Assembly (NCBI GenBank): GCA_051883495.1
Contig: JBJETV010000022.1
Location: 35,118-99,117 of the forward strand
DNA from: Christensenellales bacterium
GTDB taxonomy: Bacteria > Bacillota > Clostridia > Christensenellales > UBA1242
Length of the DNA stretch: 64,000 nt
Reading direction: 5' to 3'
Part shown: positions 7,966 through 51,548 of the stretch, piece by piece
Layout: each line of letters starts with the position of its first letter
How positions within the stretch are numbered: the first letter of the stretch is position 1
The notes under the pieces: model-generated
What the model saw: the letters and a program-made list of their open reading frames with translations, nothing else
The model's database searches: none
What the model was told of the DNA's origin: nothing
Translations under genes and position numbers: made by a program

Positions 7966-8042
7966 TTGCAAAGACAATTGCTATGTTCATTGTGAATAAT
8001 TTTTGTTCATTATGAACTCCGAAAGTTTGTTATTATCACAAG

Positions 8043-8070
8043 AAAGGGCCATTTGGCTCTTTTTTGTTTT
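8043..8070 (+). terminator. intrinsic terminator after hup
   Basis: Stem AAAGGGCC (8043-8050) / GGCTCTTT (8055-8062) with one G.T wobble, loop ATTT, then a T-rich tail TTTTTGTTTT. Confidence 0.5.
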
Positions 8071-8436
8071 ATGTAGATAATTCTCAAAAATAGCAATATA
8101 AGTGCTTCGTGTAATTTATCTTCAAATAGAAATTAGTATAATTTCTTGTGGTAAACGAGTAAAAGTCAGTATCCATTTATTTTGTTTTTATTTATTTCTA
8201 CTTCAAAAATTAACTTTCTTTTTTTTCAACTTACAGTAGTTTCTTTTTGAATTATAGCAGTAAATTTATCTTATGCTAAAATTTTCTTTAGTTTTATTTT
8301 ACAAAAGTTTTTATTTTTTTTCTTTTATATAAATACATCTATTTTTTTTGAAAAATTTTTATGTAATTTTTCGCATTTTCTTGGAGGGTAGGTAAAAGAT
8401 TTTGTAGTTTTTTTGTCAAAATTTGGTGTAATTTAT

Positions 8437-8465
8437 TTGGTAAAAATGGAAGATACTATTATAAT
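8437..8465 (+). promoter_or_regulatory. candidate sigma-A promoter of giant gene 1 (TTGGTA-N17-TATAAT)
   Basis: TTGGTA at 8437-8442, TATAAT at 8460-8465. This implies a leader of ~125 nt. The AT-rich context makes false positives likely. Confidence 0.3.
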
Positions 8466-8597
8466 AAGATTGTAGTATTATATTCTTTATCTTATTATGC
8501 AACTTTACTTGAGGAATAAGTGGTCGGTTGATTATTCTTGCAATGTATGAAATTTTTGCAAGGTAATCGGTTGATAGGTCTAAAAGGAGTTATCCAA

Positions 8598-11500
8598 ATG
8601 TTGAAAACTAAATTCAAAAAAAGCAAAACGAGTTTTTTTGGTAGAATGGTGGGTCTGTGCTTTATGGCACTGTGTCTTTGTGCGCCGACCTTTTTGGGTT
8701 TGTTTGGACGAGAGGTGTCCGCTTCGGCTAGTAATATAACCGAAGTAACTTCACTTATTCCCGGTAGCAAGGTCTATTTTGGCGAATACCCACAAGATAC
8801 TGTTATCAAGGTCAAGGACGGCATTAGTGAAAATGGTGGCTGGGAAATTGTAAATTTTACTTGGACAGAGGGTTCAAATAATAATTTCTCTACTCAAATT
8901 AGTCCAACAGAAGCCGGTGTAAATAAAAATAGTGTAAAGGCCCATAACACAATTAAAGGTTATATTGAAGAACTATTGCAAGGAATTTATGGTTCAGAAT
9001 TTAATTGGCACACAACAACTGTGGCAAAGTTTGCTCCAAATACCAGTTGCCAAACAGAAAATATATCCTACGATTACGTAACTGGATATTACACATTGCT
9101 AACAGACGTGAATGTGAGTGATTATTCTGGAGGAGAAAATGCTCCAGTATCATATCCTGCAGGTTCAAAATTTTATGCTTATAACAGAGTGGTTGATGCT
9201 CTGAATAAATATTATAAAGTGTCTCCCGATACTAGTGCAAGATGGCCATCTATATCAAGTTCATTTTATCTTACTGGGAAAAGATTTAATTACAGTGAAA
9301 ATAGCACTTTAGAAACAACTCCAATAACAATTATGTCGGAGCAAAGTTACATTAAGGATCCATCAAGTTATAAATTCTTGAAAAGATCTTATGGTGTTTA
9401 TAGAGTGGCTAACGATTTTTACGATTATTACGATAAATATAATAGTAGAACAAATAAAGGCAATGTTACGATGCATGGGTATGATAAGTTTTTGGATAGC
9501 GGAGCAGCTGTAGAAGATTATTCGGCCACAGGAACAGGACCTAGCGGAATATTCCTATTTGAAGTTAAACCAATAGAGTGGACTGTATTTAGTGCAGACA
9601 ACCTTCAAGTTAATTCAACAAACAGCGACGAATGTATAACATTGGCGTCTAGCCAAATAATAGATTCCAACGCATTAAATTATGAACCATGGAAGTATAT
9701 AGACAGTCCATTCTATTATTTTTCGAGTCGTTATGACCAAAGCAATATGAGGGCTTGGCTAAATGCAATGGGTTCTCTTACAACAGACGAAGAATCAGTT
9801 AATCTAACAATGACAAATGGTTCAAAGTCATACACAGATACATTTTATCAAAGCAAGCGAACATTCATGCCAATGGCTTTTGGGGGAAAAACAAATCTAT
9901 TGAAGTATTTTAGCCATATATCTAATGTGACTCAAAGTAGAAAGGAAGCAAGAGTAGGGCTTTTGTTGTCTAGTGAAATAGAAGGGAATGGTTTGCAAAC
10001 TGCAACACAAACACAATACTCATTGGCGTGCGGTGATCAAAGTAATACAGGAATATGGTATTTTTCGCAGACGGATTCGGATGGGACCAATCTTTGTTAT
10101 GGCCCTGATGAATATGGAAGAGGAAGCGTTGTCTCTGGAGTTAATGTAATTAATGTCTTTGGTGTAAGACCTGTTATTTGCTTGAAGAAATCTGATTTTT
10201 GCACCAGTAGTCAGTTTGGACAGATTGGAACAAATGAAATACTAAATATTAGTTCTCCACTATCCTTGGGCAAAGAAGTTGATGCTAGTACATATTCTGC
10301 CACAAAGCCTTATTTGTTGCAGTTTGCCACTGAAGAAAGTGGCATTGGGACTCTTAAAACTGCCTCTCTTGAAATAAAACAAAATAGTTTAGTTAGCACG
10401 GGGGAAAGTTACAATACTACTGCCAGCAACTTTGTGGTAACTAAACCAAACTATGACCCAAACACAAATGAGTCTCAACCGACAATAACTGCTCCGGCGG
10501 TGTCGGGCTTTGTTGTAGCGGGGATAAAGAGATATGATACCGAATCTGGCAAAAATATATCTGATGCCGATTGTCCCTTTACTGTTTCGTTTATACCAAT
10601 AACGTCATTCTTGGGGGCTGGACAAAACCCTATAAACAACACTATAAAATCACTTTCAGGGCAATTTGTGATGGACTATTATCTCATTTATCAAGGTGAT
10701 ATCTATCTTATCAATCCAAAATATGTAACCAACCCAAATATCTATGTTAGTGAAAGTGGGTCGGCGAGCAACTCCGGTCGGTCTGCAGCCTCTCCAGTTC
10801 CACTTGCTGTGGCAGAAAAACTGGCTGGCAATGGCGTGGGTGTAGATACAGGCAATATGTCTACTTTAATTTTCCTAGAAAATCGAGAATTTAGCGATAG
10901 AGAATTGAAGTTCAAATATCCAGTGGTGTTTAACTCTAATACAGTACTTGGAACATTTATCACCGTAACAAGTGGTAATGTAACATTTGAAAATATTATC
11001 TTTGATGGAAAAAACGAGGAAAGAAATACCGCCGGAATAGTGTTAAATGATGGCACTACTACTTTTAACAATTGTAAGGTTATCAATTTTAACAACACAA
11101 CAGGTGATGGCGGTGGGATAAAAGTTGGCGTTGAGGCGACTGTAAGTGGTTCTTTACTAGAACTCTCCAACAACAAAGCAAAGACGAATGGCGGTGGAAT
11201 GTATTGCGAGGGGAATTTGAATGTTGTCAAGTTTATCCTTACAAGCAATATGGCTAGCAATGGCGGGGCGATTTATGTTACTGGTAATGTTGAAGTAGGG
11301 ACTATTGAGGCTTCGGGCAACTTTGCAAATAAAAATACCTCTTGTATATATGCAACAACTACTGATTCATCAAAGAAATTCAAGGTTACAGAAACTTTGG
11401 ATATTCATGATAACAAAGCTAATATCAGCGGTGGAAACACATATTATTCTTCTTCTGCAGTTTGTTTAGAGGGTTATAAAGTAAACATTGTCAACCCACA

Positions 11501-14500
11501 ATTTAATGATAACGAAAATTCTATTGCATCATTGTTCCTTAATGGGTGTTATTTGATGGGTGATGGTAGCCCAACATTGAAGGGCAATAGTAACGAGAAC
11601 AAGGGTTTATTCTCCAAAAATTATAATAAGGATGCTACTAACAATTTTGCTGGAGCAATCTATGTTACAGATGGTGGCAAGGCTGATTGCTCATATGTCT
11701 TTTCAAATATATCCTTTAATAATAACGGTGCGGATAACGGTTATGGTGCGGTGTTGGTTGTGGGAGATTATGCCGAAAAAGAAGTTACATTTTATAATTG
11801 CTCTTTTAACAACAACATAGGTGTATATTGTGGCGGATTAGCATTTTATCAAAGCAAAGATGGTGGGTTGTCAGGCAATTTTAATATAACAAATTGCACA
11901 TTTATTGGTAACACTGCTACCAGTATAAATGAACCAACAGACCCAAATATAAAAAGAAATGTTGCCGGCGCATTGCTAGTTCAGCATAGAAATAACACGA
12001 ACCAAGTGGCTGTTAATATTTCTGGTACAACATTCTTGGGCAATCAATCTACAAAATATGGTGTTGCAAACTTTGAACTGAAAGAAGACGACAGTATTAC
12101 AATAAACACTGTAACCTTGGGTGGAGATTTGATAGACGGAAATAACAAATCAAACATCTCAAACATTTCAACCACTGCGGGAGCATTGTTTGCAATAAAT
12201 GGTAGCAGAAATAGTGCTAGTGGTGTTGCAACAGCATTTACTATAAATGAATTTGTCGCCAAAAATAATGGCATTGTAGATGGCAGTTTTGCAACAGAGG
12301 GAGTGCTGGAACTTAGCAACCTTGCTCCAACAAACGAATATCTTCTAAAAAATTGTTTATTTGAAAAAAATGAATCGACTTATTCCGGTGGTGCAGTGAT
12401 TATAAAAGACTGCTCTGGAAAGATTGAAGATTGTTATTTTGGTGAAAATAGTGTGTCTATTACAAAGAATGAAAATTCAGAAACCTATCTTGGAGGTGGT
12501 GCTTTGTATATCACCAGCCAACAAAGTGGATACACTTGCAATGTGGATATTTCAAAAACTACTTTTGCGGGAAATAGTGTTACTTTGAGCGTAACTGGAG
12601 TTTGTGTTGCAGGTGGTGGTGCAGTGCTTGCCAACAAATCTCTCTTGACATTGACAGATGTTTATGCCACAGGCAATACTGTAACGGCCAACGGCGAAAA
12701 TCAAATGGCAAAAGGTGGAACAATTTGCTCGTATGGCAATATGCAAACAGGAGTTGAATATATTACACAATGTCAACATCCTACTCCATGCGTTGTGATA
12801 AACGGTGGGTGCTACAAGTCAAATTTAGCAAATTTTTCTCAAAATGCTTATTCCTATGGTGGTGCTATTTGGGGAGATTGTGTCAAAATACAAAGCGGTG
12901 GAGCAATCGCTGGAATAACCACTACAATCGCAGGGAAAGTTCCTGAAGAAAATGTCACTTATGCTTACACTGCAGATAGTCGAGCGCAATTTGTTTCCAA
13001 CAAGGCTTATTATGGCGGTGGTGTGTATACTTCCACTTGCCTAGAAATAGATAACAAAGACACTAGCAATTTGGTTGCTTTGTTTAACGGCAACGAGGCA
13101 ACGCACGGTGGAGCAATCAACGCACATGGTGTGGCAATAATTGACGGTGGAGAATTTACAAATAACATAGCAAAAAATGTTAATGACAATACTGCTTCCT
13201 TTGGTAATGGCGGAGCAATTAGTTTTGAAAATAGCGAACAGACTATTAAATTCTATAATTATCCAACGGGATTAAGCACAGATAGTTCAGACGCGTCTTA
13301 TGCTTTGCCTATGTATGCAAAGATTGTTAGAGCAGAGTTTTATGGCAATGAAGCAGTTCAGGGTGGTGCGATTTATTCAAATAGTTCTTTATCTCACAAT
13401 GATGGGACAGCATTTGCAAAAGGTTCTATGTTGGAGATTGTGGGGCAAGTTGATGAAGGATCAGGTTATTCAGTAAAGATTGGAGATATCAGTACAAATC
13501 CTGATGAAAACAAATCTAACTCTGCAGTTTATTTTGGTGGTGGAATATATGCTTGTTCTCCTGTCAAGCTCCAAAATATCAATATAAAATATAACCAAGC
13601 AAACAGTGCCTCGGCAATATACCTTGACAATCAATATACAAGATATAGTGTTGCAGATAGCGGGTTCGTGGTAAGTGACAAAGTAGAGATATCAAACATT
13701 ATGTTTGAAGGGAACAAATCTGCATCTGTTGGTGTAATCCAAGCAAGCAGAAACATTGACATAACAATAACAAACTGTGATTTTATCGGGAATGAAAATG
13801 CAGGTGCAATACTCAACTTTATTGGCGCAAATGAAGGAAACAATGGGAATGGAATCGGCTCTGGAACACTGCAAAACTGCACATTTAGTAGAAATATTGG
13901 CTGTACTGACACTATGACAATTTATGAAGGTGATGTGATAAATGTTTCCAACAGCGAAGTGGCAATAAACGATTGTAATTTTGGTCAAAATGGCAATAAT
14001 GGACTTGCTCATTATGGAACCATTCTGTTGATTGCAGAGGGTGGAGTTGTTCACCTTAACAATATTTCTGTCAATGGAACAGAAGGGAATAAAATAGCCA
14101 ACACAGACGGTCTTATTTGGGTGCAAAACAACGGCACTCTGAAAGCAAAAGGTGGGCAAATATCCCAATTAACAGGGGAAAATGGCAGTGTAACTGTGAT
14201 AGAGGGCAAGGCTTCTTTTGACGAGATTAGCATTTCGAACTGCTCTGTCAGTGGCAACGGCGGTGCGATTTATGTCGCAAATGGGGGAGATTTGTATTTT
14301 GCCGGAAATATTGATAGTTGCTCTGCAACAGGCAATGGTGGTGCAATTTATGTGGAAAGTGGTGGTACTGCTTTGATTGCTGGCAAAATGAAATTAGACT
14401 TAACTTATTCTCAATGTAATATTACAAATTGCTCTGCACAAAATGGTGGTGGAATATTTGCAGACGGAGATGTTGTTGTGCAACGAGCAACTATTTCTGG

Positions 14501-17462
14501 CAATTCTGCTACAAATAGTGGCGGTGGAATATATGCAAACAATAATAGTTCTCTTACAATAGGCATTGACTCAGATATTACAAATAACAAAATCACCGGA
14601 AGTGGTCGAGGTGCAGGAATCTATTCCAAAGGTCAACTGTATATTACAGATGCAACTATTTCTGGCAATAGTTTTGATTCAGCAACCAACACTTATGGTG
14701 GTGGTTTGTATGCGGAAAATGTTTCTTTTGAAATAGTCAACACCATTTTCCAAGGCAACAATGCAGAGAGTGGTGGCGCAATATTTGCAAGTGGCGGAGC
14801 GGTCGATTTGCAATATTGCAACTTCTTGGGAGAGGCAAAAAACAATACTGTAAAATTGTCAAATTGTTATGCCAATTTATATGAGTGTCTTTTTGAAAAC
14901 ATTTCTTCAACCGAAAAAGCCAGTGCACTTCTTCTTGACGGCGGAAGTTGTATTATGCAAAATTGCACTTTTAACAACAATATATTTGTAAATGATACTA
15001 GCACTGATAAAAAAGGCACTGTAAACTCTACAGGTGTTTTGTTGGAAATGGCTGGATGTGAATTTACAGACAACGGAACAAATGGTCTTTTGTCCAATGT
15101 TTATTATAACAACACTGATGGTAGTGCAAGACTGGTCTATTGCTCATTTACAAATGGAAAGGCTAACGGAAGTGAAAATAGTGTAACAATAAGCACTCCA
15201 AATGCTTGGGTAGAAAACTGCACTTTTGACAATAACCAAGAGGGTGGCTTACTGCTTCAAGTGAGTTATGGTGTGGTGGCAAATTGCAACTTTACTGCAA
15301 ACGCAAAGAATGGCGGATTGAAAATAGTTGAGCCTAGCAGTGCAAATGCGAATGTAGAGATATTAGATTGTTCCTTCTTGAAAGGGGGTTCTGACAAAGT
15401 AAATAGTTCTGATTCAAATGGTGGTGCGGTGTTTATTGGGGCTGGTTGCAATGTAAGAATATCCGGCACTTTTGAAGCAAGGGAGAACTCTTCTACTAAT
15501 GGTGGTGCGGTGTATGTTTCAAGTGGGGCAAAGTTGTATATCACACGCAATTCCAAGGTGATTATTTCTGACAATAAATCCTCAGATAATGATAGCAATT
15601 TATTACTCGCCGGGGATAATTTGCTGGTGATAGAAGGTGGACTGCTTGACGGAAGTAGTATAGGTATTTCTCTTGCTAGCGGAAATATAGTCGCAAGAAA
15701 TGGAGGTATCCCTCTTGAAAGTGCAGATGTAAACAAGTTGTTTAGCGACAGCAAAGCGCACATTTTGTGCTATTCCTACAATGACAAAATAGTGTATAAA
15801 AAAGCAATTACTACTGAAACAACAGATTTTTATTATGAAGCGACCATTGACGGCATAAATTATTACACTCCAAAGAGTGATATAGTGTTGGCTTATTCTC
15901 AAATGCCAAAAGAGGGATTTACACTGGACAAGAGTTACTTTAAGGCGTATGTAGGAATTGGCGACCAGCTAAAAGAAGTGTCTATAGAAGAAATTTCCTT
16001 CCAAATTAAATCAGGAGAGTTGTATGGAGAAGAAGAAAGTGGCAAAATAAAAATTACTCAAAAAGGTAGTCAGACAATAAAATTCCTTATCAAAAAAGTA
16101 AAAAATGGCGAGAATGAAATTATTTTTGGGGAGGAATTTGGTGGTGATGTTGTCGTAGATGTTGTTGGAGAATATCTGTATATAATTTCCACTCCACAAG
16201 CAATAATGACCGCCAAAAAAATCAATACATTTAGGCTAACTCAAGCAGGTAGTGTAATAGGTAGCAACGGGCAAGAAATCGCAGGAACTTGGAGTCTTGT
16301 TTCGGGAGAAAATACGGAAAAATCCGGCTATTACCGCTGTCAATTTACTCCAAAACAATCTGCCTTGTATGAAAACGCAAGCAACCTAATTTCCACAATG
16401 TATGTGAATGTGGTCTATGATAAATTGTATTATTTTAATAGCACAAATAGTGGCTTCTTCGCAGACAGTGCAGGCAGTGTGCAACTGGACGGAGTAGGCA
16501 ATATTTCAGACGCATTGCCACTGCTAAATGACAACGGAACTATTGTCTTTATGGACACATATATCGTAAACACTTCGGAAAATATTGTTGCAACAAAGAG
16601 AGTGAATTTTGTAAGACAAAAAACTGACAAAGACTTTGCAATGATAGAGATTTCGGCAGAAAAATCATTGTATATCACAGGGCAAAATGCAGAAATAATA
16701 TTTGACGGAAACGAAACAAACAGTGTAAATTTCCCTGCCTTTGTTGTTAACGGAACACTTACTTTGGGGAATAATGTTACAGTTAGAAACTTTGAATTTA
16801 CTTCAAACACATCTTCTTCCAATTTTGGAGCAATTTGCAACTTTGGAACACTCATTCTGCAAGGGTGCAAAATCTACAACAACAAGGCACTGTCCTCCTC
16901 AAATAATCAAGGTGGGGCAATATACAACGAGGGAACAATGAACATTGTTGCTGGCAATTTTTACAACAACACAGCAGAAGGGTCTGGCAAAGGTGGATTT
17001 GTATATTCCAAAGGCAAACTGACGGTTTCTGGCGGAAGAATTTACAACAACACAAGTGCCTTTGGTGCTGGGATTTATGTGGCAAATGGCGGGTCGGCAA
17101 GCCTTGTTGACGGCTATATCACACACAACTACGCAACCAGCAATGGTGGTGGTGTGTATGTGGAAAATGGTGGCAAATTGTCGCTGAGTTCTACACAAAT
17201 TTTATCCAACAAATCAGGCGCAGATGGTGCCGGAGTTTATAAGGCAGAGGGCGGAATTGTATTGCTGTCTTCTGGCGAAGAAATTGCTGGCTCGACTATT
17301 CAGTCTATAGAAGTTAAAAATATTCCTTTTGCTACAAACAATCAGTCGAATGACGCTATTTGGGTAGTAATTTTGGGAGCAGTTGCAATGATTTTGGCTA
17401 CAGCAATAATGTTTATACTGCTCAAAAAATCTCAAAAAGTTTGCCTTTACAAAATAAAATAA
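8598..17462 (+). CDS. giant surface protein 1 (2,954 aa): signal peptide, DUF6273-like head, Pmp-type parallel beta-helix repeats, Ig-like domain, second short beta-helix, C-terminal TM anchor
   Basis: SD AAAGGAG lies 8 nt before the ATG at 8598. Signal MLKTKFKKSKTSFFGRMVGLCFMALCLCAPTFLGLFGREVSASA. VYFGEYPQ ... PIEWTVF ... MRAWLN ... VRPVICL. Many NGGAIY/GGGIY/FxxN repeats. C-terminus AIWVVILGAVAMILATAIMFILLKKSQK. Confidence 0.9.
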   Translation: MLKTKFKKSKTSFFGRMVGLCFMALCLCAPTFLGLFGREVSASASNITEVTSLIPGSKVYFGEYPQDTVIKVKDGISENGGWEIVNFTWTEGSNNNFSTQISPTEAGVNKNSVKAHNTIKGYIEELLQGIYGSEFNWHTTTVAKFAPNTSCQTENISYDYVTGYYTLLTDVNVSDYSGGENAPVSYPAGSKFYAYNRVVDALNKYYKVSPDTSARWPSISSSFYLTGKRFNYSENSTLETTPITIMSEQSYIKDPSSYKFLKRSYGVYRVANDFYDYYDKYNSRTNKGNVTMHGYDKFLDSGAAVEDYSATGTGPSGIFLFEVKPIEWTVFSADNLQVNSTNSDECITLASSQIIDSNALNYEPWKYIDSPFYYFSSRYDQSNMRAWLNAMGSLTTDEESVNLTMTNGSKSYTDTFYQSKRTFMPMAFGGKTNLLKYFSHISNVTQSRKEARVGLLLSSEIEGNGLQTATQTQYSLACGDQSNTGIWYFSQTDSDGTNLCYGPDEYGRGSVVSGVNVINVFGVRPVICLKKSDFCTSSQFGQIGTNEILNISSPLSLGKEVDASTYSATKPYLLQFATEESGIGTLKTASLEIKQNSLVSTGESYNTTASNFVVTKPNYDPNTNESQPTITAPAVSGFVVAGIKRYDTESGKNISDADCPFTVSFIPITSFLGAGQNPINNTIKSLSGQFVMDYYLIYQGDIYLINPKYVTNPNIYVSESGSASNSGRSAASPVPLAVAEKLAGNGVGVDTGNMSTLIFLENREFSDRELKFKYPVVFNSNTVLGTFITVTSGNVTFENIIFDGKNEERNTAGIVLNDGTTTFNNCKVINFNNTTGDGGGIKVGVEATVSGSLLELSNNKAKTNGGGMYCEGNLNVVKFILTSNMASNGGAIYVTGNVEVGTIEASGNFANKNTSCIYATTTDSSKKFKVTETLDIHDNKANISGGNTYYSSSAVCLEGYKVNIVNPQFNDNENSIASLFLNGCYLMGDGSPTLKGNSNENKGLFSKNYNKDATNNFAGAIYVTDGGKADCSYVFSNISFNNNGADNGYGAVLVVGDYAEKEVTFYNCSFNNNIGVYCGGLAFYQSKDGGLSGNFNITNCTFIGNTATSINEPTDPNIKRNVAGALLVQHRNNTNQVAVNISGTTFLGNQSTKYGVANFELKEDDSITINTVTLGGDLIDGNNKSNISNISTTAGALFAINGSRNSASGVATAFTINEFVAKNNGIVDGSFATEGVLELSNLAPTNEYLLKNCLFEKNESTYSGGAVIIKDCSGKIEDCYFGENSVSITKNENSETYLGGGALYITSQQSGYTCNVDISKTTFAGNSVTLSVTGVCVAGGGAVLANKSLLTLTDVYATGNTVTANGENQMAKGGTICSYGNMQTGVEYITQCQHPTPCVVINGGCYKSNLANFSQNAYSYGGAIWGDCVKIQSGGAIAGITTTIAGKVPEENVTYAYTADSRAQFVSNKAYYGGGVYTSTCLEIDNKDTSNLVALFNGNEATHGGAINAHGVAIIDGGEFTNNIAKNVNDNTASFGNGGAISFENSEQTIKFYNYPTGLSTDSSDASYALPMYAKIVRAEFYGNEAVQGGAIYSNSSLSHNDGTAFAKGSMLEIVGQVDEGSGYSVKIGDISTNPDENKSNSAVYFGGGIYACSPVKLQNINIKYNQANSASAIYLDNQYTRYSVADSGFVVSDKVEISNIMFEGNKSASVGVIQASRNIDITITNCDFIGNENAGAILNFIGANEGNNGNGIGSGTLQNCTFSRNIGCTDTMTIYEGDVINVSNSEVAINDCNFGQNGNNGLAHYGTILLIAEGGVVHLNNISVNGTEGNKIANTDGLIWVQNNGTLKAKGGQISQLTGENGSVTVIEGKASFDEISISNCSVSGNGGAIYVANGGDLYFAGNIDSCSATGNGGAIYVESGGTALIAGKMKLDLTYSQCNITNCSAQNGGGIFADGDVVVQRATISGNSATNSGGGIYANNNSSLTIGIDSDITNNKITGSGRGAGIYSKGQLYITDATISGNSFDSATNTYGGGLYAENVSFEIVNTIFQGNNAESGGAIFASGGAVDLQYCNFLGEAKNNTVKLSNCYANLYECLFENISSTEKASALLLDGGSCIMQNCTFNNNIFVNDTSTDKKGTVNSTGVLLEMAGCEFTDNGTNGLLSNVYYNNTDGSARLVYCSFTNGKANGSENSVTISTPNAWVENCTFDNNQEGGLLLQVSYGVVANCNFTANAKNGGLKIVEPSSANANVEILDCSFLKGGSDKVNSSDSNGGAVFIGAGCNVRISGTFEARENSSTNGGAVYVSSGAKLYITRNSKVIISDNKSSDNDSNLLLAGDNLLVIEGGLLDGSSIGISLASGNIVARNGGIPLESADVNKLFSDSKAHILCYSYNDKIVYKKAITTETTDFYYEATIDGINYYTPKSDIVLAYSQMPKEGFTLDKSYFKAYVGIGDQLKEVSIEEISFQIKSGELYGEEESGKIKITQKGSQTIKFLIKKVKNGENEIIFGEEFGGDVVVDVVGEYLYIISTPQAIMTAKKINTFRLTQAGSVIGSNGQEIAGTWSLVSGENTEKSGYYRCQFTPKQSALYENASNLISTMYVNVVYDKLYYFNSTNSGFFADSAGSVQLDGVGNISDALPLLNDNGTIVFMDTYIVNTSENIVATKRVNFVRQKTDKDFAMIEISAEKSLYITGQNAEIIFDGNETNSVNFPAFVVNGTLTLGNNVTVRNFEFTSNTSSSNFGAICNFGTLILQGCKIYNNKALSSSNNQGGAIYNEGTMNIVAGNFYNNTAEGSGKGGFVYSKGKLTVSGGRIYNNTSAFGAGIYVANGGSASLVDGYITHNYATSNGGGVYVENGGKLSLSSTQILSNKSGADGAGVYKAEGGIVLLSSGEEIAGSTIQSIEVKNIPFATNNQSNDAIWVVILGAVAMILATAIMFILLKKSQKVCLYKIK

Positions 17463-17512
17463 TCATTTTGTGTTGGTCAAAAGGTTTTTGTGTAAAAAGA
17501 AATTTGAAAAAA

Positions 17513-17538
17513 ATAGGTGAGAAATTGCCTATTTTTTT
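17513..17538 (+). terminator. weak intrinsic terminator between giant genes 1 and 2
   Basis: Stem ATAGGTG / TTGCCTAT-type, 7 bp with two G.T wobbles, 6-nt loop, then T7 (17532-17538). Confidence 0.35.
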
Positions 17539-17661
17539 GTATTTTTTGAAAAATTATAATCGCTAAATGTCTTTTGTAGAGCAAAAATACGCAAAAATAA
17601 ATTTGTCAACTAATTTTCAAACAAAAATATTGTTTTTTATATTTTTTTTGTGGCAAAATAT

Positions 17662-17690
17662 TTGTTAAATTTTGGCCCATAATATATAAT
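17662..17690 (+). promoter_or_regulatory. candidate sigma-A promoter of giant gene 2 (TTGTTA-N17-TATAAT)
   Basis: TTGTTA at 17662-17667, 17-nt spacer, TATAAT at 17685-17690. Confidence 0.4.
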
Positions 17691-17785
17691 ATAATCATAG
17701 TTGTAATAAGATTGTCGCATTGTGCATTTTTTTGGATAGCAATCTTAGCCAACAATTTAGTGGCATATGCCAAGAGGTTATGATT

Positions 17786-35700: not shown

Positions 35701-38700
35701 AGCACAAACCAACCCAGTGGCAATGTATTATGCAGTGGGTTATGGAGAAAGCGTTAGATACCTTAAGATAAGCGACAACTTGTCTTTGGTTGATGAAACT
35801 GGCAGTGCATTGGTGTATGGCAACAAAATAACTCTCTATGTTTTGGGTGGAGAAAAGTTGGATGAAAATAGTTTTGGCATAAAACTTTATGGCAGAACAG
35901 AGGCAATAATGTCCAATTTGTCTGCAAGCGAAACAAGTAAAGAAGTCAACGGGATTGTTTGCTCAATATCCATTGCAAAAATGGATACTCCAGACGGATT
36001 CCATACATTCTACAGCAACTACTACAATGGCTTAGGTGAAAGCGAAAAAGCCAAAAATGCAAGCCTAGATGCTGGGGGTTATGTAAAGGTAGAAATAACA
36101 CTTCTCAGCACAGGGACAACATATATATATGGTTACAAACAAGGTGGATACAAAACAGTGGGGGAAGAAACAACCAGTTTTGGCGAAGCACTTTCTCCAA
36201 AGGCAAAAGTTGTGGTGGAAAAGAAAAATATTGTCCTAAACACTCCAGATGCCATGGTCAACTTTGGTGAAAATAATGTTCAATTTATCAAAGACGGCAG
36301 TGCTATCCCATACAACTATTACAGTATCATTGGCACATCTTATCCAAGTTCTGCAATAGGCACAGAGTCTGATTGGAGGCGTGTAGATATATTTGCCGAT
36401 TCTGGCATATTGGAAAGCGACAAAAATGACATAGAAAGTCGCATAACACCAGTGGTGGACAACATTTCCAGCCTAAATCCAGGCAAAAATGCAGGCGCAG
36501 TGAGGATTTCGTTTGTTCACGACAACTACAACATAACTTCCTACGCAGGTGCAGTGTGGGTGTTGAGTCAAGTGGTGGAAAGTGAAGATGTTCAGGTTAG
36601 ATTCAAATACAAATATGTATATGACACCACTGCAAAGACCATTTTAGACAATGATGTAGTCGTGTATGTAAAGGGCAACTTGTTTGTTGATTATCACATT
36701 ACAGAAATAAAAGATAATATCAGTGCCGGCACAGCAAAGATTTACATTGCTATTGGTGTGGACCCAACAGGTGTGCCAAAAGCCAGTGCCTACACTTCGG
36801 GCAAAAACGGAGATACTCCAATCTCGTTTGAAAAGACATTTACAATTGACGCGCTTAATCTTGACCAAACAGCATATAAGCAACTGGGTACAACAGAACT
36901 GTATTATGGTGTTATGAACAAGTCTTTGGTGTTTGGAGATTCTTTAACTACAGATGAAACATACACTGGAGGGGAAATTAGAAAGAGTCTTTCAAATCAA
37001 ATCTATATACAAAATGGATCAAGTGGCACAGATGTTGCATATATTGACACAGCCAATCTTGACTATTCTCACAGTGCAAATATCAATGCGGGTGTTGCAA
37101 CACTTACTATCACAGGAAAGAACAATCTAACTGGTAGAAAAGTCTTGACATTTAGGATTAACCCAAAGACAATCACCACAGATGATATTGGAAATTATGA
37201 ACTATCACTAATTGACGGCAGTGTAACGGGCAAGCAATTTGTTTATAACGGCGGAGCAATCAAACCTGTTATCAACTATATCAAACTGAAAGACTCTGAA
37301 AAAACACTTTCATTTGATGCCAATTACTCTTATCTTATGGGGGATAAATCTTCAATAATCAACTACAATGGCAACCCTGTTGATGTGGGTAGTTATTGCA
37401 TTCAAGTTGTCATAACAGGCGATTATCCAACCAGAAACTACACAGGAACAGTTTATCTTGCTTATGAAATAGTTAAGATGAGCATTCAAGACAACAATTT
37501 CGTAACAATAAATGTCAATGATAGCAGTCTTGTCTATACAGGATACAACTTGTCGCCAGTGATAACAGTGATGAGAAATGGCAAAGCGTATGATTCCAAT
37601 ACAAAGGAATTTTTGTGGCAAAATAATATCGCCATAACAAGCGACTTCAATTTCTCATACAATGCCGAACACAAAAATGCAGGCATACACGAAGTTACAA
37701 TAACTGCAAAAGAAGGGACAAACTTCTCGGGCAGTGTTACAAAGACGTTTAACATACAACAAAGAAGTTTGGGAGATGTGTCGTTTAATATAAATTCTCA
37801 AACCTTTACCGGCACAAAGATAACCCCAGCGAGAGATAATATAAAAGCAACCCTTGGCTCTTACATTCTTATTGCTGACGACTACGATTATGTTTCTTTG
37901 GGCGAAAATATCAATGTTGTTTACAACAGTAGTGGTGTCGCAGTGTATGGCGGAACAATAACTGCCAGTGGCAAAGGCAACTTTAGTGGTTCGGTGAATG
38001 TGCAATTTGTTATCACTCCACTAGAAGTAACACAAGAAAACAGCAATATGTTTGTTGTAACATTGGACAAAGATACATTTGAATATTCAGGCGAGGAAAT
38101 TAGACCAAATATAGAGGCAATATCCTTTGTAGTAGGCGCAAGTTCTTATCCACTAGCGATGTCCAACTGGACAAGCAAAGACCTTGAATATTTCAACAAT
38201 ATCAATGTTCCACTAAATGTTTCCGCTAGCCCAACTATCCGCATAACTCTCAGCAGAAACTTCACAGGAACTTTGGACAAGACTTTTGAAATCTTGCCAA
38301 AAGAAATGAAAGACGGTCTGTTCTTTGTGGTGGATCAAACAGAAGATTTGCAAGACACAATGACTGCTATTTCACTCAACCTTTCTAGCACAACATACAC
38401 AGGTGCTGTGCAAAATAAGGCAGTGGCTTTGTATCAAAAATTTGTGCTAGAAGATGGCTCGGTGGAATATAGAAGGATAGCCACAATCAACGAAGGCAAT
38501 AACAACCTTCCTAACTTCAAGTTGGATTTTGTGTCAAGAATCATTGACAACCCAACAGAAAGTGATTATGCAATCAATGTGGGTTCTGCATTTGTAAAAG
38601 TTACAGGACAAAACAATTATAGCGGTTCAATCTACTCCTACTTCAACATAGACCCTCTGGATATCCAGTCTGCTCTGGATAAGTGGATAAATGAGGGAGA

Positions 38701-41700
38701 AGATGCAACATCAAATTGCAGAATTATGTTGAATAATTATGTGCAAAAGGTAACTATTGATGACGATATTACAGCCTTCAAGTTTAATGCAAGCGCAACA
38801 TACACAGGTGATGTGATTATTCCAAACTTTGTCCTAAGCCTCCTTGTAGGTGATAGCAGAGTAACATTGCAAAAACGTGCAACTATTAATGCCAGCGGGG
38901 ATTATTATGTAGGCGTGCTTGACGGATGTGTAGATGTAAATTCTATCAATGTGTTGTATGCCACAGGATATGGCAACTACTCTGGCACAGCATACTTTAC
39001 ATTTGACATCTCTCCTATGGAAATTTCGTCTATTCTAGAGGGAGTGAGCATTGCAGATGTGGAATACACTGGCTCTGAAGTCAGATTGGAAAACTTGATA
39101 TTTAAGGGAGCAGATGGCAGTGTTGGGTTGAAAAACAAAAACAATACACTTTCCCTTGGCACAGACTACACATTGAATTATGACGGCTCGCAAGATAAGA
39201 TAAATGTAGGCACCAAGACAATAGTAATCGTAGGCAGAAATAACTATAGTTCGAGCAGTGTTAGCAAATTGACATTCAATATTGTTCCAAGAGATATGTC
39301 GCTTTATCCAGAAGAATTTGAGTTCAAGTTGACCTCTGAAAAGCAATATCAAGGCAAAAATGAATCAACAACACTATCTGCAGGAGATTTTGTATTGAAG
39401 TTCGTTTGTGGCACTCATCAAGAAACATTAGTCTTGTTTGACAATCAAACAGGCCTAGGCAACTTTACAATAAAGAGTTACGCAAACAACACCAACGCAG
39501 GCACTGCTACTGTGGTGTTTGAAGCCATTGGCAACTCAAACTTTGCAGGCAGTGTGGCAAAACAATTTGTAATCAGTCCAAAAGATGTGTCATCAAGTGA
39601 TGATATCTTGATAGAATTGCCAACTCCAACCAGCAAGATAGGTTCGTTGTATTTGTATAGGTATAACATGGGAGAAACCAAGCCACAACTCACCATTTCG
39701 GACAATGGAGAAAGTTTGGTCGCAGAAGAAGATTACGAAGTGATATACTCCAACTGCCAGAGAATTTCTCATGATATCTATGGCAATATGACATCTAGCA
39801 ATATGCCAACCGCCACTGTCATATTCAAAGGCAATTATGTTGGCAACCTTTCCAAAACTTATGGAATAGCAAAAATAGCCCTTACGGCAGAGGATGTGTC
39901 TTATCAGTTCCCACAACTTGTCTATACAGGTAGCGAGATTAAGATTTCGCCACTGATGATCAAAATGCAACTGAAAGAAACTTCTTATAGCAAGAGTTAT
40001 GTCTTTACAGTCAACGACTTTGCACTTGCTACAGGAGGATATTTCGAAGCAACTGGCGAAAATATCAACGCAACAGCATTAGACGGCTTGGGCAACTTTA
40101 CTAGCGAAAACAAAGGCAAGGTAAAGATTAAATTTACCGGAAGTGCCAGCAATGTTTTCGCAGGGGAGTTTGAGTTGGAGTTCAATATTGAAAGAAGGAA
40201 TATCTCCGATGCAACATTTGACCGAAACTTCTTTACTTCCGAAATATATTCAGGCACATACATTGGCAAAGATTATCCAGTAACATTTGCACAACAAACT
40301 TTGGAATTGGATAGAGATTATACCTTGGCATACAGAAACAACAAAGATGTTGGCTTGGCAACAGTTGTTGTGAGTGCAGTGGCTGGCAGTGGGGCACACA
40401 ACTTTACTGGATCATCTGAGATAACATTTAATATTTCACCAAAAGATATCTCCAGCGAAGATATTACATTTGATGTTAATGATTCTCCTACATACAACTA
40501 TGGCTCTGCAATAGAAGTTGCATCAAACAAACTTTCTGTTGTTATGCCAGTGGGTGGAGGTTCTTATAACCTAAAATATGTTTCGTCAACTTCGGGCGAC
40601 TTTGAGATTGTCCGTTATGAAAATAACATTAATGCCGGCATAGCAACCATTTGGATAAAAGGTATAGGCAACTTTACTGGCGAAAAATCAAGTAACTTTG
40701 TGATATCGCCAGTGGCTATTAGCAATGTAATTGTCAAAAACAATACTGTTGCAGGTGTAAGAAGTGAATCCTTTACTGGCAAGCAGGTAGAATTGGACGA
40801 TAGGACAGCAGACGAAATGTCTTCTACAGGTTCTTACTTTGAAGTAGTAGTTAATGGCAAAGAAGTCTTGAGAATATACAATTCTTTCAATTCCGCACTA
40901 TATGGATATGTGGAGAGTTATCAAGATAATATTCATGTAGGCACAGCAACTGTCAACTTCAAATTGTCCAGCAACTTCTACGACAGCATGCAGAATATCA
41001 CTTTCCAAATCAATCCAAAGAAATATGTCGAAAGTGAATTTGTCATTCCAAATATTCGTGACCAAGTAAAATCTGCCACTCCATCAACTCCAATCTTCAC
41101 CACAGATTATTGTGATGGCTTGCTAAAATTCCGTTATATTGACCAAATGGGCAACGAGGAATGGCTAGAACTCCCAGAATATTCCGATTTGGGTGTCGCC
41201 AACTACACATTGTCTTATATCAACAACAACGATTATGGCATAGCAACAGTAACAATAAGATTTGAAGGTGATTTTGACGGATTGGCATACACGCAGTTTG
41301 TAATTATCAAAGCCTACTCTCCAACAGATGTAACCGTTACTGTAACTAAAGATGGAAATACAACTATTGCATACACAAGAGGACTGGCTCTAGACGACTT
41401 AACATTGTATGCCTCCACTCTTGCCACAGGTGCAAAGTTACAATGGCTAAACGGTAGCGAAAAAATTGCTTCTGTCGGATTGCAATCTTATTCCGCATAC
41501 TACAACGAAAACCCAGAAGAATATTCAGACGTAATAATTCAAGTAGAATTTATGGTGGAACAAGGAACATTTACCGAACAAGATAAGCAAAATATAAGAG
41601 AAAGAGTCTATTCTGACAAAAATTCAGAATTATTTGGCGATTATTCCACTCTTTATCGTGTGCCATACTTCTTTGGACTTGTGCTGGAGAATGTAACTCT

Positions 41701-43996: not shown

Positions 43997-44002
43997 CAAA
44001 AG

Positions 44003-44031
44003 ATGGGAGAATTAACTTTCTCCCATTTTTT
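44003..44031 (+). terminator. strong intrinsic terminator directly after giant gene 2
   Basis: Perfect 9-bp stem ATGGGAGAA (44003-44011) / TTCTCCCAT (44018-44026), loop ttaact, then T6. Confidence 0.75.
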
Positions 44032-44060
44032 GGTCAAAATGCCAAAAGTATGGGCGACTA

Positions 44061-44089
44061 TTGACAAATCACCACCGAGGATATATAAT
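44061..44089 (+). promoter_or_regulatory. consensus sigma-A promoter of the GLUG-repeat gene (TTGACA-N17-TATAAT)
   Basis: TTGACA at 44061-44066, exactly 17 nt of spacer, TATAAT at 44084-44089. GGAGGG SD at 44103-44108. Confidence 0.6.
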
Positions 44090-44113
44090 ACACTCAACAA
44101 ATGGAGGGAAAAT

Positions 44114-47100
44114 ATGAAAAAATTCTTGTGGTTTATTGTGGTTGCAATAGCAGTTGTAAGTTTTGGGCTTACAATTTACTATTTCTCTGCCGACAACGAA
44201 GTTATCTATGTTCGCAGTTCGTATATCGTTGTGGACGAGGGAGATTTTATTTCAACCAACAGTTTGATAGAAATCAAACACAAAGGCAAAGACACAACAT
44301 TATCTTTTTCAAGCCAAAACGAAGAAGTTTTGAGCTTCAAGTCAGAGGGCAACACTTTTGAAGCAAAAAAAGGAGGTCAAGGGCAGATTGTTGTTACGAC
44401 CAGCAACAGACGTTATGCAACTTTGGTTATTGACGTGCTTGTTTGCGATGGCTCGGCAGAATATCCATATGTTATCACTACCGAAGCACAACTAAAGAAA
44501 ATCGGCGACACCTCGATAGAAGACAACAAATATACTACCGACAAAAATTATCGACTAGGAGATGACATCTCATTAGAAGTGGTGGAAGAAGGCAACTGGT
44601 CTCCAATCCAAAATTTCACCGGAACATTTGACGGCAACTTCTATACAATTTCCAACGTCAATATTACAGATAGCACACTAAAAGCAGATAATTATGACAA
44701 TAAGTTTGTTGGATTCTTTGACAAAATTGCTTACAACGCAACTGTCAAAAATCTTATACTTTCCAACTTCAATATCAATGTCAGCGAAGCATTTGCTGTA
44801 GGTTCAGTGGCAGGACTCAACCAAGGAACAATTCGTACTTGCCTTACTTATGGCTCAATAGAAGTGGCAAACAAAGTGCAATATCTTGGCGGTGTTGTGG
44901 GCAATATGTATGTTGACTCCACAGCCACAGACACAATTTCTCCTATTATCGATAGATGCGGGTTTGAAGGAGCAATAACACTTCCTCAGACCAATCAAGC
45001 AACTTCTGCCAACCTAGGTGGAATAGTAGGAAAAATGGAAGAAAGTCAACTTTCCGAGAGTTATTTTAGGACAACTCAAGACAAAGTGCTAAAGAATTAT
45101 TCCAACCAATTTGGTGGAATTGTTGGCACTTATAGCACAAACAACAAACTTTATGACAGTTATGCATTCTTTGGCGGTTTGGACGAAGACAATACCAACA
45201 CAGCAACTATTGCAGGTATTATTGCAACAAACAACGAAACAAACACTACAAAACTTCAAAAATCAGTGCTTGGCAATTACTTTGGCGGAAGTGAAAACAT
45301 ATCCAGCACTGTCCTAACAGGCGAAACACTCAATTCTTCAGTAAACAAATATCTCACCAACGAGCAATTCTCCTCTCAAAACAGTTTTGTAACATATGTA
45401 ACATCGGCAGAAGATGTGAGATATTGGAATTTCTATTCCGTATGGGAATACTCTGGCGCATATATCTACCCAGTGCTTAATATCTTCTCATCAGTTGGTT
45501 CTTCTTATCTAGACAATCCAGAAATTGTAACAGACAGCACAGTAAAAACAGCACAAGAGTTATACGATGCACTTGCGGGCAATGGAAAATATGCAACTGT
45601 TACTGGGCTTGATATTCAAGGTGAATTTGACGCAGAAACAGGCAATTATTATATTGATATGGATCCAGAGGTTGTTGGTTGGACTTGGGGAGATGCTTCT
45701 CACCCAATCCCAGCAGGATTTGACAAAACAATCGCATCATCCACTGGATGTATAATCAAAAATCTCGTTATCACAAACACAGACACCTCAGCAACCAAAA
45801 ATGTAGGACTTGTAGCAAACCTTGGCAGAAATGCAATAGTAAGTTCATTGATATTTGACAAAGTTACAATTACAGGTAACCCAGCGCAATATGTTGGTGT
45901 TATCTGCGGTATTGACGAAGGCGCTATGATTGCAAGCATCGCTATCCAAGACCTTTCAGTCAATCTTTCTGAGGGATATATCCCAGTGGGCAACTGGCAA
46001 GGGTTGGATTATAGCAATGGCTGGGAAAACACTTCAGTCAAAACTGTTGTGGCAAGTGCCAGAGCAATAGGTTCTGTGGCAGGCAAAGCACTTTCCAGCG
46101 AAAACTATGGCATTCAACATATCGTTGTCGCCAATGTAGATTTTTCAAATTGCTACTTCTTGTATGCTGGTGGTATAGTGGGTTACAATTCCGCAGTTAT
46201 CACCAAAGGCATCAGAAGCAACAATGTAAGTTCAATCAAATTGAATGCAACTTATGCAGGTGGCGTTGTAGGCAACAACTTCGGTAGAGTTGAATATTGC
46301 AATGCAAGCAATGTAGAATTTAAGAAATCAATCAACCAATCCAATGAGAATACTTTGTTCAAAACAAACATTTTTGTTGGTGGAATCAGTGGAACAAACA
46401 ATGGTGATATCGCAAATGTTCAAGTTCAACAACTTGACATCGAGTTGCCAACCACTTCCGGCAATTATCTTTCACTTGGTGGTGTTTCTGGGGCAAACAA
46501 CGGCGCAATAAACAACGCACAAGTGTTGTATCCAGTTATCAAAACTACAGAAAAATATTATGTTATGGCTGGCGGTTTGGTGGGTAAAAATAGTGCTATC
46601 GTCAATGGCAACAGCACCAACGGAACAATTGCCAACTCCTCTGTAACAGGCGGAAGTATTGTCCTTGACTTCTCAACTAACGGCAGATCAGCATACAACA
46701 ACAAGAATGTTTCAATAATAGCCACAGGAAGTATGGCTGGCGGTCTGGTCGGTTATGACGACAGAACAACATCAGCATATTCCATTCAAAATTGCACCAC
46801 CACAATCACCAAAGTTTCTGCTTTCTTCGCAGGTGGATTTACAGGACTATCTTATGGCAAAATTTCCAAGGTTTCTGCTGGCGACACAACCAAAGTGTAT
46901 GGCGGATTGGAAATAAATGGCTTCCACGCAGGTGGATTTAGCGCAGGCATCGCAGATGGCTTTGTAAAAGACAGTTTTGTTCTTTGCACAGTAAAAGCAT
47001 GCGTAACAACTGGCAGTTACAATGATATTTCATCTGTTGTTGGTATGGAAATATCCGCCAGCGCAGGCTATGCAGTGCTTATCTCCAACAAAGCAGAGAT

Positions 47101-47377
47101 CGCAGGCAACTATGCAGTGGTAGAATTTGGTGGCAACGGAATATCTTTCTCCACCACAGCCGACCTTCAAGACAAATATGTAGGTGGCAAATATACAGGC
47201 AATATCTATATGCAATCTGGCGCAGTTACTGCCTCAAACATTGGAACAAAGCTTACCAAAGAGCAAATTACAGGTGAGGGTGGAGATTTCTCCGAATTTA
47301 CCAAAAATATTGGTTGCACAGGCAATGTCCACGATATTTGGAACCTTAACGCAGGCCAATACCCAACTCAAAAGTAA
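44114..47377 (+). CDS. signal-anchored surface protein (1,087 aa) with Big_2-like domain and many GLUG-motif repeats
   Basis: N-terminus MKKFLWFIVVAIAVVSFGLTIYYF. Repeats LGGVVGNMY, LGGIVGKMEES, FGGIVGTYS, AGGIVGYNSAVI, AGGVVGNNFGRVEYC, VGGISGTNNGDI, LGGVSGANNGAINN, AGGLVGKNSAIV, AGGLVGYDDRT. The track's N-terminal extension (from 44003) is encoded by the terminator hairpin. Confidence 0.85.
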   Translation: MKKFLWFIVVAIAVVSFGLTIYYFSADNEVIYVRSSYIVVDEGDFISTNSLIEIKHKGKDTTLSFSSQNEEVLSFKSEGNTFEAKKGGQGQIVVTTSNRRYATLVIDVLVCDGSAEYPYVITTEAQLKKIGDTSIEDNKYTTDKNYRLGDDISLEVVEEGNWSPIQNFTGTFDGNFYTISNVNITDSTLKADNYDNKFVGFFDKIAYNATVKNLILSNFNINVSEAFAVGSVAGLNQGTIRTCLTYGSIEVANKVQYLGGVVGNMYVDSTATDTISPIIDRCGFEGAITLPQTNQATSANLGGIVGKMEESQLSESYFRTTQDKVLKNYSNQFGGIVGTYSTNNKLYDSYAFFGGLDEDNTNTATIAGIIATNNETNTTKLQKSVLGNYFGGSENISSTVLTGETLNSSVNKYLTNEQFSSQNSFVTYVTSAEDVRYWNFYSVWEYSGAYIYPVLNIFSSVGSSYLDNPEIVTDSTVKTAQELYDALAGNGKYATVTGLDIQGEFDAETGNYYIDMDPEVVGWTWGDASHPIPAGFDKTIASSTGCIIKNLVITNTDTSATKNVGLVANLGRNAIVSSLIFDKVTITGNPAQYVGVICGIDEGAMIASIAIQDLSVNLSEGYIPVGNWQGLDYSNGWENTSVKTVVASARAIGSVAGKALSSENYGIQHIVVANVDFSNCYFLYAGGIVGYNSAVITKGIRSNNVSSIKLNATYAGGVVGNNFGRVEYCNASNVEFKKSINQSNENTLFKTNIFVGGISGTNNGDIANVQVQQLDIELPTTSGNYLSLGGVSGANNGAINNAQVLYPVIKTTEKYYVMAGGLVGKNSAIVNGNSTNGTIANSSVTGGSIVLDFSTNGRSAYNNKNVSIIATGSMAGGLVGYDDRTTSAYSIQNCTTTITKVSAFFAGGFTGLSYGKISKVSAGDTTKVYGGLEINGFHAGGFSAGIADGFVKDSFVLCTVKACVTTGSYNDISSVVGMEISASAGYAVLISNKAEIAGNYAVVEFGGNGISFSTTADLQDKYVGGKYTGNIYMQSGAVTASNIGTKLTKEQITGEGGDFSEFTKNIGCTGNVHDIWNLNAGQYPTQK

Positions 47378-47435
47378 TTAGTGAGTAATAAAAAAGAGAT
47401 ATTGATGTGTCCTTTTGAGACAGAATAGAAATTAA

Positions 47436-47465
47436 GGGAATTAGGATATATCTAATTCTCTTTTT
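47436..47465 (+). terminator. intrinsic terminator after the GLUG-repeat gene
   Basis: Stem GGGAATTAG (47436-47444) / CTAATTCTC (47452-47460) with one G.T wobble, 7-nt loop, then TTTTT. Confidence 0.65.
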
Positions 47466-48645: not shown

Positions 48646-48709
48646 AATATTTCGCGAAATATACAACTCCTTTAATGAATACAAGAGTATTACTTAAAGG
48701 AGAAAAATT

Positions 48710-51510: not shown

Positions 51511-51548
51511 TTTTTTCACTTTACAACACAGGCTTTGAGGGAGGAAAA

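Follow-up and report, generated by a model that had tools for sequence, protein, structure and literature searches.

The 64,000-nt stretch of DNA examined here (the window, whose positions serve as coordinates throughout) belongs to the uncultured low-G+C gut Clostridia and carries three large genes, A, B, and C, which a preliminary description, made from the sequence alone, had presented as a 39-kb island of surface-protein genes. The three open reading frames (ORFs) proved to be intact and co-oriented, as described (Table 1), with spacers of 323 nt between A and B and 117 nt between B and C. Together with a fourth gene, D, which lies further downstream and runs off the end of the window, they add up to 8865 + 26211 + 3264 + 6063 = 44,403 nt, in agreement with the total given before. 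Immediately upstream are the genes for FtsH, LepB, DegV, and HU (7694-7966), and downstream follow those for SpoVG (49322-49636, minus strand), MurC, L31, and a PEBP-family protein. The G+C content of the window is 31-39% in 2000-nt bins, with a GC skew that is positive nearly throughout, and that of the A-C locus (0.35-0.39) equals that of its flanks. No tRNA genes were found in the window, no Rfam family matched anywhere in it, no tandem repeats were found in the DNA of the locus, and no integrase was present among the scanned ORFs.

We compared the locus with ~40 related loci from uncultured Christensenellales-like gut metagenome-assembled genomes (MAGs; GTDB UBA7862 and relatives). The labels of these relatives are ‘Clostridia bacterium’ or ‘Christensenella sp.’; one example is UBA7862, a name used for a genus-level gut taxon in two microbiota papers. 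The genes turned out to be syntenic and not scattered, with A proteins down to 40-43% identical, and the order ParB..FtsH-LepB-DegV-HU-A-B-C-SpoVG-MurC..MetRS-Dtd-D recurs in related MAGs; contigs carrying A orthologues read ParA-ParB .. FtsH, two small genes, LepB, DegV, HU, A, and B. The C family (1025-1128 aa, 32-91% identity over the full length, all from uncultured Clostridia) was present in 29 species in a scan of one genome per species. In the loci that are long enough, C is followed by a MurC-sized ORF, with spoVG between the two where genes were called, and the MurC match was confirmed in 23 loci. A giant ORF lies directly 5’ of C in L001-L003, L005-L007, L009-L013, and L028, lies one gene away in L016, L020, and L021, and is absent from L014, L017, L018, L022-L024, and L029-L032. 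In L016-L018, L020-L024, and L026, a conserved protein of ~415-434 aa is encoded 5’ of C, either where the giant gene is absent or in the gap separating B from C. It has no Pfam family, looks cytoplasmic, shows no relationship to B, and lacks a homologue in the window. The A orthologues form about eight clusters (2880-2954 aa, 40-70% identity). Within the near clade, the B orthologues measure 8745 aa (L001), 8765 aa, and 8775 aa; in L002, which belongs to a distant clade, B has 6652 aa. Homologs of B were searched for with its last 1500 aa, and the full-length orthologues are known through their neighbouring genes. From these distributions, C appears to be order-wide and always beside spoVG-murC, B narrower, and A narrowest, which is at odds with treating A-B-C as one module. 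The description of the locus as an island did not stand either, in view of the flank-like G+C, the absence of tRNA genes and of integrases among the scanned ORFs, and the shared gene order; judged by its sequence and synteny, the locus looks like a conserved, inherited part of the core chromosome near parB.

Each gene had also been proposed to form its own transcription unit. The promoter-like sites named for A (TTGGTA-N17-TATAAT, 8437-8465), B (TTGTTA-N17-TATAAT, 17662-17690), and C (TTGACA-N17-TATAAT, 44061-44089) were confirmed. On their own, 10/12 promoter matches prove nothing because they are common in AT-rich DNA (55 found in the window vs 35 expected); the perfect TTGACA-N17-TATAAT occurs twice, vs 0.05 expected. 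All 11 orthologous loci examined retain the C promoter, TATTGACA-N17-TATAAT, even where the C proteins are 37-39% identical, and its spacer and flanks vary. Both hexamers of the A promoter and of the B promoter are conserved in six relatives. The terminator-like hairpins with T-runs after A, B, and C were likewise upheld; all three fold stably, those after A and B far outside the shuffled controls. The hairpin after A has few G-C pairs but is extended by the A-run and T-run, and it is kept in 6 relatives, where changes are confined to the loop or to one stem position. A hairpin and T-run after B occupy the same position in L001, L002, L005-L007, L009, and L011-L013, with stems that differ in sequence and still pair. 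After C, the relatives have convergent spoVG directly adjoining, with a different hairpin between. Upstream of A, a hairpin with a different stem is found at the position of the HU terminator in L034, L036, L039, and L041, and this terminator would isolate A from upstream transcription. The recurrence of promoter and terminator elements at the same positions in relatives supports three separate transcription units, so that A, B, and C are probably promoted and terminated individually.

The most conserved non-coding DNA lies in front of B. The region 17508-17720 holds a CGCTAAA..CTTTTGT.GAGC element, TTGTCA at 17603, a T-tract, the promoter hexamers, and TAATAAGATTGT (17704-17715), and it is 83-94% identical to the corresponding DNA of L034 and L036, vs 53-57% for the flanking coding DNA and 35-50% for other spacers. 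The A-B spacer contains the best conserved 100-nt bin in 27 kb, the HU gene apart, and the proteins that flank it are 42-46% identical to those of the relatives. The A promoter region resembles that of B and retains ~80% DNA identity to relatives whose A proteins are 42-44% identical. The window has two exact copies of the 12-mer TAATAAGATTGT, one at each of these two promoters, and this sharing, together with the resemblance of the two promoter regions, suggests a common regulator. We infer from the conserved promoter DNA that regulators bind there densely and that A and B are under shared control. When metagenomes were scanned for a 24-mer taken from the B promoter, only two contigs matched. 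A leader peptide encoded by the spacer ORF 17567-17668 was considered and rejected: the start of this ORF varies among relatives, a ribosome-binding site is missing, and most of the substitutions replace an amino acid. Relative to L034 and L036, the window has ~370 nt of very AT-rich extra DNA (8070-8400) that separates the HU terminator from the A promoter, and L039-L041 have other extra DNA at this position.

Gene A encodes a protein with an N-terminal hydrophobic stretch (residues 18-36) followed by VSASA, and with a C-terminal helix (2923-2941) followed by KK in a short basic tail. Its head of ~700 aa is lineage-specific: an exhaustive phmmer search of 1.84 billion representatives with mature residues 1-524 returned orthologues only. 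Within the head (8706-10277), the motifs VYFGEYPQ, PIEWTV, WLN, and GVRPVICL are strongly conserved. DUF6273, suggested by the order of these motifs, gave no Pfam match at E up to 5 and is unsupported. In a structure model of residues 37-1100 built from 8 sequences (mean predicted local distance difference test score, pLDDT, 51), only the beta-helix at 776-1100 is usable, and its top fold match is the binding region of the L. reuteri serine-rich repeat protein (SRRP), with a non-significant E value. The PMP-repeat score of A alone is 9.7-11.5 bits, under the cut-off. The beta-helix regions of the two giants are homologous, with ~24% identity, so A may derive from a B-like ancestor; A and B appear to be distant paralogues. 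No PDB sequence relatives of A were found.

The B protein begins with a hydrophobic stretch (11-34) followed by AYA and ends with a helix (8678-8696) and a 40-residue basic tail (8697-8736). Its PMP/beta-helix region gives Pfam Chlam_PMP (PF02415) matches of 25.9 and 41.3 bits (cut-off 20.6), Beta_helix matches, and TIGR01376 matches of 24.1, 36.6, and 17.5 bits (cut-off 15). The repeats of B are highly diverged (~20% identity), and internal repeats are weak in a BLAST self-comparison. The last 1500 aa match many surface proteins that carry MBG_2, Big_2, fn3, or CBM_X2, at ~25% identity over ~40% of the query. Neither B nor its repeat profile has sequence relatives in the PDB. In both A and B, there was no match to autotransporter families, each protein ending in a single hydrophobic helix and a basic tail, and no Pfam match to FIVAR, GA, or DUF1542 modules; no CAZy-type Pfam or NCBIfam family matched A, B, or C. 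On this sequence evidence, A and B would be beta-helix proteins of the PMP-repeat kind, held in the membrane by an Ebh-like C-terminal anchor.

The C protein is built differently. It has a single N-terminal helix (residues 4-22) with no small-x-small cleavage site, and this helix and the ~30 residues after it are nearly invariant among 30 homologues that are otherwise ~40% identical. The near-invariance of residues 1-31 (44114-44210) hints that this segment is not simply an anchor but makes a specific interaction inside the membrane. The AlphaFold model of C (pLDDT 85) contains the membrane helix, an immunoglobulin (Ig)-like domain (~30-115), and two beta-helix blocks. A fold search gave no match at E 0.001 or better, and its best local matches are the beta-helix part of the S. 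pneumoniae IgA1 protease (7uvl_P and 6xja_P, probability 0.98-0.99, E 0.013-0.02) and the Ig domains of Big_2 and SraP. The Pfam Glug score is 16.7 bits, below the cut-off of 20.5, and most homologues have a precomputed PF07581 match. Neither a Peptidase_M26 match nor an HExxH motif was found in C, which is probably an Ig-like and GLUG-type beta-helix protein with no protease domain. The polar residues D280-R281-C282 and D348, inside the first beta-helix, are invariant. Look-ups of the exact protein for C (with two start choices) and for DegV returned no record.

The use of different anchors had been proposed in the preliminary description and was borne out: A and B are predicted from hydropathy to have a signal peptide and a C-terminal helix, C a signal anchor, and D a lipobox, and these features are conserved in orthologues. 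The lipobox of D, L-S-A-C, is kept as [ST]-[AS]-C in orthologues. The absence of a sortase, of a convincing LPXTG, and of S-layer homology (SLH) and choline-binding modules also held for the scanned ORFs of the window. None of the four proteins has a C-terminal LPXTG, and LPxT[GASN] does not occur in A, B, or D and occurs twice in C, both times internally. HExxH is absent from all four proteins, and neither accessory Sec genes nor serine-rich repeats were found within the window. The lepB gene was confirmed at its reported place and has the same position in L034, L036, L039, and L040. Its product is the enzyme expected to cleave the signal peptides of A and B, and the proximity of lepB reflects a conserved housekeeping order and is not evidence of a dedicated link to the giant genes.

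Table 1 Features of the window and segments of the B protein.
Feature	Position	Strand	Description
lepB, type I signal peptidase	5535-6266	+	Pfam Peptidase_S26, 7.6e-24
HU terminator hairpin	8038-8067	+	13 pairs; -17.3 kcal/mol, z -5.1
A promoter region	8405-8480	+	T-tract, TTGGTA-N17-TATAAT (8437-8465), TAATAAGATTGT (8462-8473)
Gene A	8598-17462	+	2954 aa; predicted signal peptide, head, PMP-like beta-helix, C-terminal helix
A-run/hairpin/T-run terminator after A	17507-17538	+	-13.0 kcal/mol, z -5.8
Non-coding region upstream of B	17508-17720	+	Terminator, promoter, conserved elements
Gene B	17786-43996	+	8736 aa
B signal peptide (predicted)	residues 1-34
B unique region	residues 35-400
B PMP/beta-helix repeats with unique inserts	residues ~400-3400		Chlam_PMP and TIGR01376 above cut-off
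B unique region	residues 3400-4400
B second repeat family	residues 4400-5700
B ~20 copies of a 100-120-residue repeat	residues 5440-7930		Signature DY..Y.NNINAGTATV..G.GNFTG....F.I.P
B unique region	residues 7930-8670
Terminator hairpin and T-run after B	43998-44031	+	-18.2 kcal/mol, z -5.0
Promoter of C	44058-44089	+	TATTGACA-N17-TATAAT, perfect consensus
Gene C	44114-47377	+	1087 aa; N-terminal membrane helix, Ig-like domain, two putative GLUG-type beta-helix blocks
Hairpin and T-run after C	47434-47462	+	-10.9 kcal/mol, z -2.5; weakest of the three
Gene D	57938-64000 (runs off window end)	+	At least 2020 aa; lipobox LSAC; Pfam MBG_2

The giant proteins change quickly in sequence and hardly at all in length. 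In the near clade, the B proteins are 8736-8775 aa long (<0.5% variation) at 45-67% identity, and they align in a single collinear piece (e.g. 3322 columns with 64% identity and 26 gaps), with no sign of repeat gain, loss, or homogenisation among the orthologues. Relative to L034 and L036, A is 42-43% and the N-terminus of B 45-46% identical, vs 84-87% for FtsH and 76-77% for DegV. L041 and L006 are parts of one MAG, and against this genome the identities are 44% for A, 48% for the first 3180 residues of B, 67% for its last 2800 residues, and 68% for C. The identity of A to L040 rises from 0.58 to 0.89 toward the membrane end. The membrane-distal ends appear to change fastest, because identity rises toward the membrane end in both A and B.

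We assign a probability of about 0.6 to the following reading: the locus is vertically inherited and composed of three separate units, and it encodes membrane-tethered giants, of which A and B serve long-range attachment. The Sec signal peptide would export A and B and be removed by signal peptidase I, and the C-terminal helix with its basic tail would act as a stop-transfer sequence, leaving the proteins N-out and C-in in the cytoplasmic membrane in an Ebh-like manner. In B, the membrane-proximal ~5000 residues, made up of beta-sandwich-type repeats and unique domains, would form a stalk that holds the PMP-repeat beta-helix (~3000 residues) and a unique tip at a distance from the cell. As rough estimates, ~3000 beta-helix residues (~25 residues and 0.48 nm per turn) would span ~60 nm, and ~50 units of beta-sandwich size at ~4 nm each would span ~200 nm. 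Fast evolution of the tip would be expected of an exposed, ligand-facing end. C would be held by its N-terminal helix and display the Ig-like domain and the two GLUG beta-helices. The likeliest role of A and B would be long-range attachment to glycans of the host, of particles, or of neighbouring cells, and the conserved promoter regions would keep the two genes under tight, shared control. The adhesion or host-interaction role proposed in the preliminary description is a plausible reading of the folds.

Several known systems resemble parts of this arrangement. Ebh of S. aureus (~1.1 MDa) has a C-terminal membrane-helix topology and is tightly repressed (PMC6548404). As predicted for A and B, it combines an N-terminal secretion signal, thousands of extracellular repeat residues, and, in place of LPXTG, one C-terminal membrane helix whose cytoplasmic tail is charged. 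Its giant gene is monocistronic and tightly controlled at the level of transcription (PMC6548404), as proposed here for A and B. However, there is no sequence homology between Ebh and A or B, which lack FIVAR, GA, and DUF1542 and have a distal PMP beta-helix and a beta-sandwich-type stalk, whereas Ebh has helical bundles. The chlamydial Pmp proteins and other passengers with PMP repeats (TIGR01376/PF02415) share with B the PMP repeats above curated cut-offs and Beta_helix, and with A its homology to this region of B. Unlike them, A and B have no autotransporter beta-barrel, each ending in a single membrane helix; their length is five to nine times that of Pmps, and the PMP region is the distal third of B. 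The plan of tip, repetitive stalk, and anchor is that of Gram-positive fibrillar adhesins such as SraP/SRRP and SasG, in which repeated Ig-like domains form the stalk below an adhesive tip; the beta-helix of A resembles the binding region of the L. reuteri SRRP, and the Ig-like domain of C resembles SraP and Big_2. In contrast to these adhesins, the window holds no LPXTG/sortase anchoring, serine-rich repeats, or accessory Sec genes, and the repeats are ~20% identical, with no tandem repeats in the DNA and no copy-number variation among orthologues. The C model locally matches the beta-helix part of the streptococcal IgA1 protease (ZmpA, M26), and most C homologues match Glug, but C has no M26 domain or HExxH, is anchored by an N-terminal membrane helix, and has a Glug score below the cut-off. 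Giant genes of mammalian-gut Clostridia have been described from metagenomes whose products are predicted to be extracellular and proposed to bind surface glycans (West-Roberts et al., bioRxiv 10.1101/2023.11.21.568195). Those proteins are 10,000-30,000 aa or longer and carry RCC1, Listeria-Bacteroides, or YG repeats, and the RCC1-type class is said to be without membrane anchors, whereas A and B have predicted anchors. That study makes no mention of the A-B-C family, of its synteny, or of its regulatory DNA (bioRxiv 10.1101/2023.11.21.568195), nor did we find a description in the literature searched. The PMP beta-helix, the beta-sandwich stalk, the membrane-helix anchor, the GLUG beta-helix, and the MBG lipoprotein are each already a known kind; what stands out is that the length stays constant, that the synteny is conserved, and that the promoter DNA is so well preserved.

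Some of the results speak against long-range attachment by A and B or against separate expression of the three genes. The near-constant length and collinearity of B are atypical of repeat-variable adhesins and fit a structural or spacer role equally; the head of A is effectively unmodelled at a pLDDT of 51; beta-helix folds occur also in polysaccharide lyases and hydrolases; and the relatives are labelled ‘hypothetical protein’ throughout the MAGs. The conservation of C in lineages that have neither A nor B makes joint action of the three genes less certain, no obvious hairpin follows B in L010 and L028, and some read-through at the terminators may occur, judging from their sequences. In an alternative that we regard as possible but unlikely, A and B make a fixed-length fibrillar coat, switched by a regulator at the conserved promoter regions and serving as a shield, a spacer, or a structural layer of the envelope. 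The coat would keep neighbours at a set distance, hide other molecules of the surface, or lend stability to the envelope, and in S. aureus such roles have been reported for Ebh, SraP, and SasG. Ebh, with the same topology and tight repression, inhibits adhesion in a size-dependent way (PMC6548404), and the <0.5% length variation in collinear alignments, the conserved core synteny, and the exceptionally conserved regulatory DNA would all suit such a coat. The fast evolution of the N-terminal tips, however, is a better fit to an end that faces a ligand or the immune system than to a passive spacer, and both the PMP beta-helix and the beta-sandwich stalk are features typically seen in adhesins. 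We are equally hesitant about the proposal that A, B, and perhaps C and D are not interchangeable adhesins but build a lineage-defining surface structure of fixed dimensions, its size kept constant by selection and its expression switched by a regulator that binds the near-invariant, TAATAAGATTGT-bearing DNA 5’ of A and B; such a structure would be, for example, a fibrillar coat hundreds of nanometres deep.

It is doubtful that the beta-helix parts of A, B, or C are surface polysaccharide lyases or hydrolases that act on dietary or host glycans. The Foldseek matches of the C and A models do include GH55 laminarinase, PL6 alginate lyases, pectate lyases, and phage depolymerases, and the invariant polar residues of C could be read in the same way, but the enzyme matches are weak (E ≥0.006, query-normalised TM-score ≤0.19) and reflect a generic right-handed beta-helix. 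No CAZy-type family matched by Pfam or NCBIfam, and the best local matches by probability are the beta-helix parts of adhesins or of the IgA1 protease and Ig domains. We consider it quite improbable that the three genes form one read-through operon transcribed mainly from the promoter 5’ of A, with the internal sites minor or non-functional. Such an operon could draw on the co-orientation and short spacers of the three genes, the frequency of chance 10/12 matches in AT-rich DNA, the shortage of G-C pairs in the hairpin after A, and the two loci with no obvious hairpin after B. Against it, the promoter hexamers are fixed in position amid variable neighbours (for C, in all 11 loci over 37-92% protein identity), the stems after B change in sequence and keep their pairing, nothing in 27 kb besides the HU gene is conserved as well as the A-B spacer, and C has the same promoter in genomes with no giant gene in front of it. 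Import of the 39 kb as a block, that is, a horizontally acquired genomic island, strikes us as very improbable indeed. Large blocks of surface-protein genes are often variable in other bacteria, which would favour it; here, however, the composition equals that of the flanks, no tRNA genes, tandem repeats, or integrases among the scanned ORFs accompany the block, the gene order is kept in relatives down to 40% protein identity, and the phylogenetic depth differs among A, B, and C. Vertical inheritance of separately transcribed, membrane-tethered proteins remains the reading that we prefer.

Beyond the three genes, the window continues with the genes for a HAD protein and an [FeFe] hydrogenase, followed by MetRS and Dtd, and with gene D. 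D scores 29.3 bits with MBG_2 (cut-off 25), and its orthologues (2158-2376 aa) occupy the same position 3’ of dtd, suggesting that it is an MBG-domain lipoprotein encoded by a separate conserved giant gene. Between C and spoVG (47641-49231), the window encodes a 334-aa SHOCT-domain protein and has a 173-aa ORF with no family. Both are missing from all the related loci, where C directly adjoins spoVG, and this segment is probably a small insertion specific to the window genome. The second perfect TTGACA-N17-TATAAT (51423-51451) lies 5’ of a conserved 359-aa ORF (51507-52586) with no Pfam family. The ORF of the HAD hydrolase (53275-54054) overlaps that of the [FeFe] hydrogenase (54015-55259) in a different frame, and the two are a single fused ORF of 656-801 aa in L001, L006, and L007. 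In the closest relative, L005, they are split as in the window, which could be a real split or a frameshift common to both.

Giant genes fill about two thirds of 64 kb near parB and are kept intact across an uncultured gut lineage. Because they are so costly and have been kept intact, A-D are probably central to the way these cells meet their surroundings. The comparison also corrects the annotation, setting the old, order-wide C apart from the younger giants (B, then A), and ‘surface-protein island’ is the wrong picture of the locus. The exceptionally conserved promoter DNA is a place from which to search for the regulator that controls giant surface proteins in uncultured organisms.

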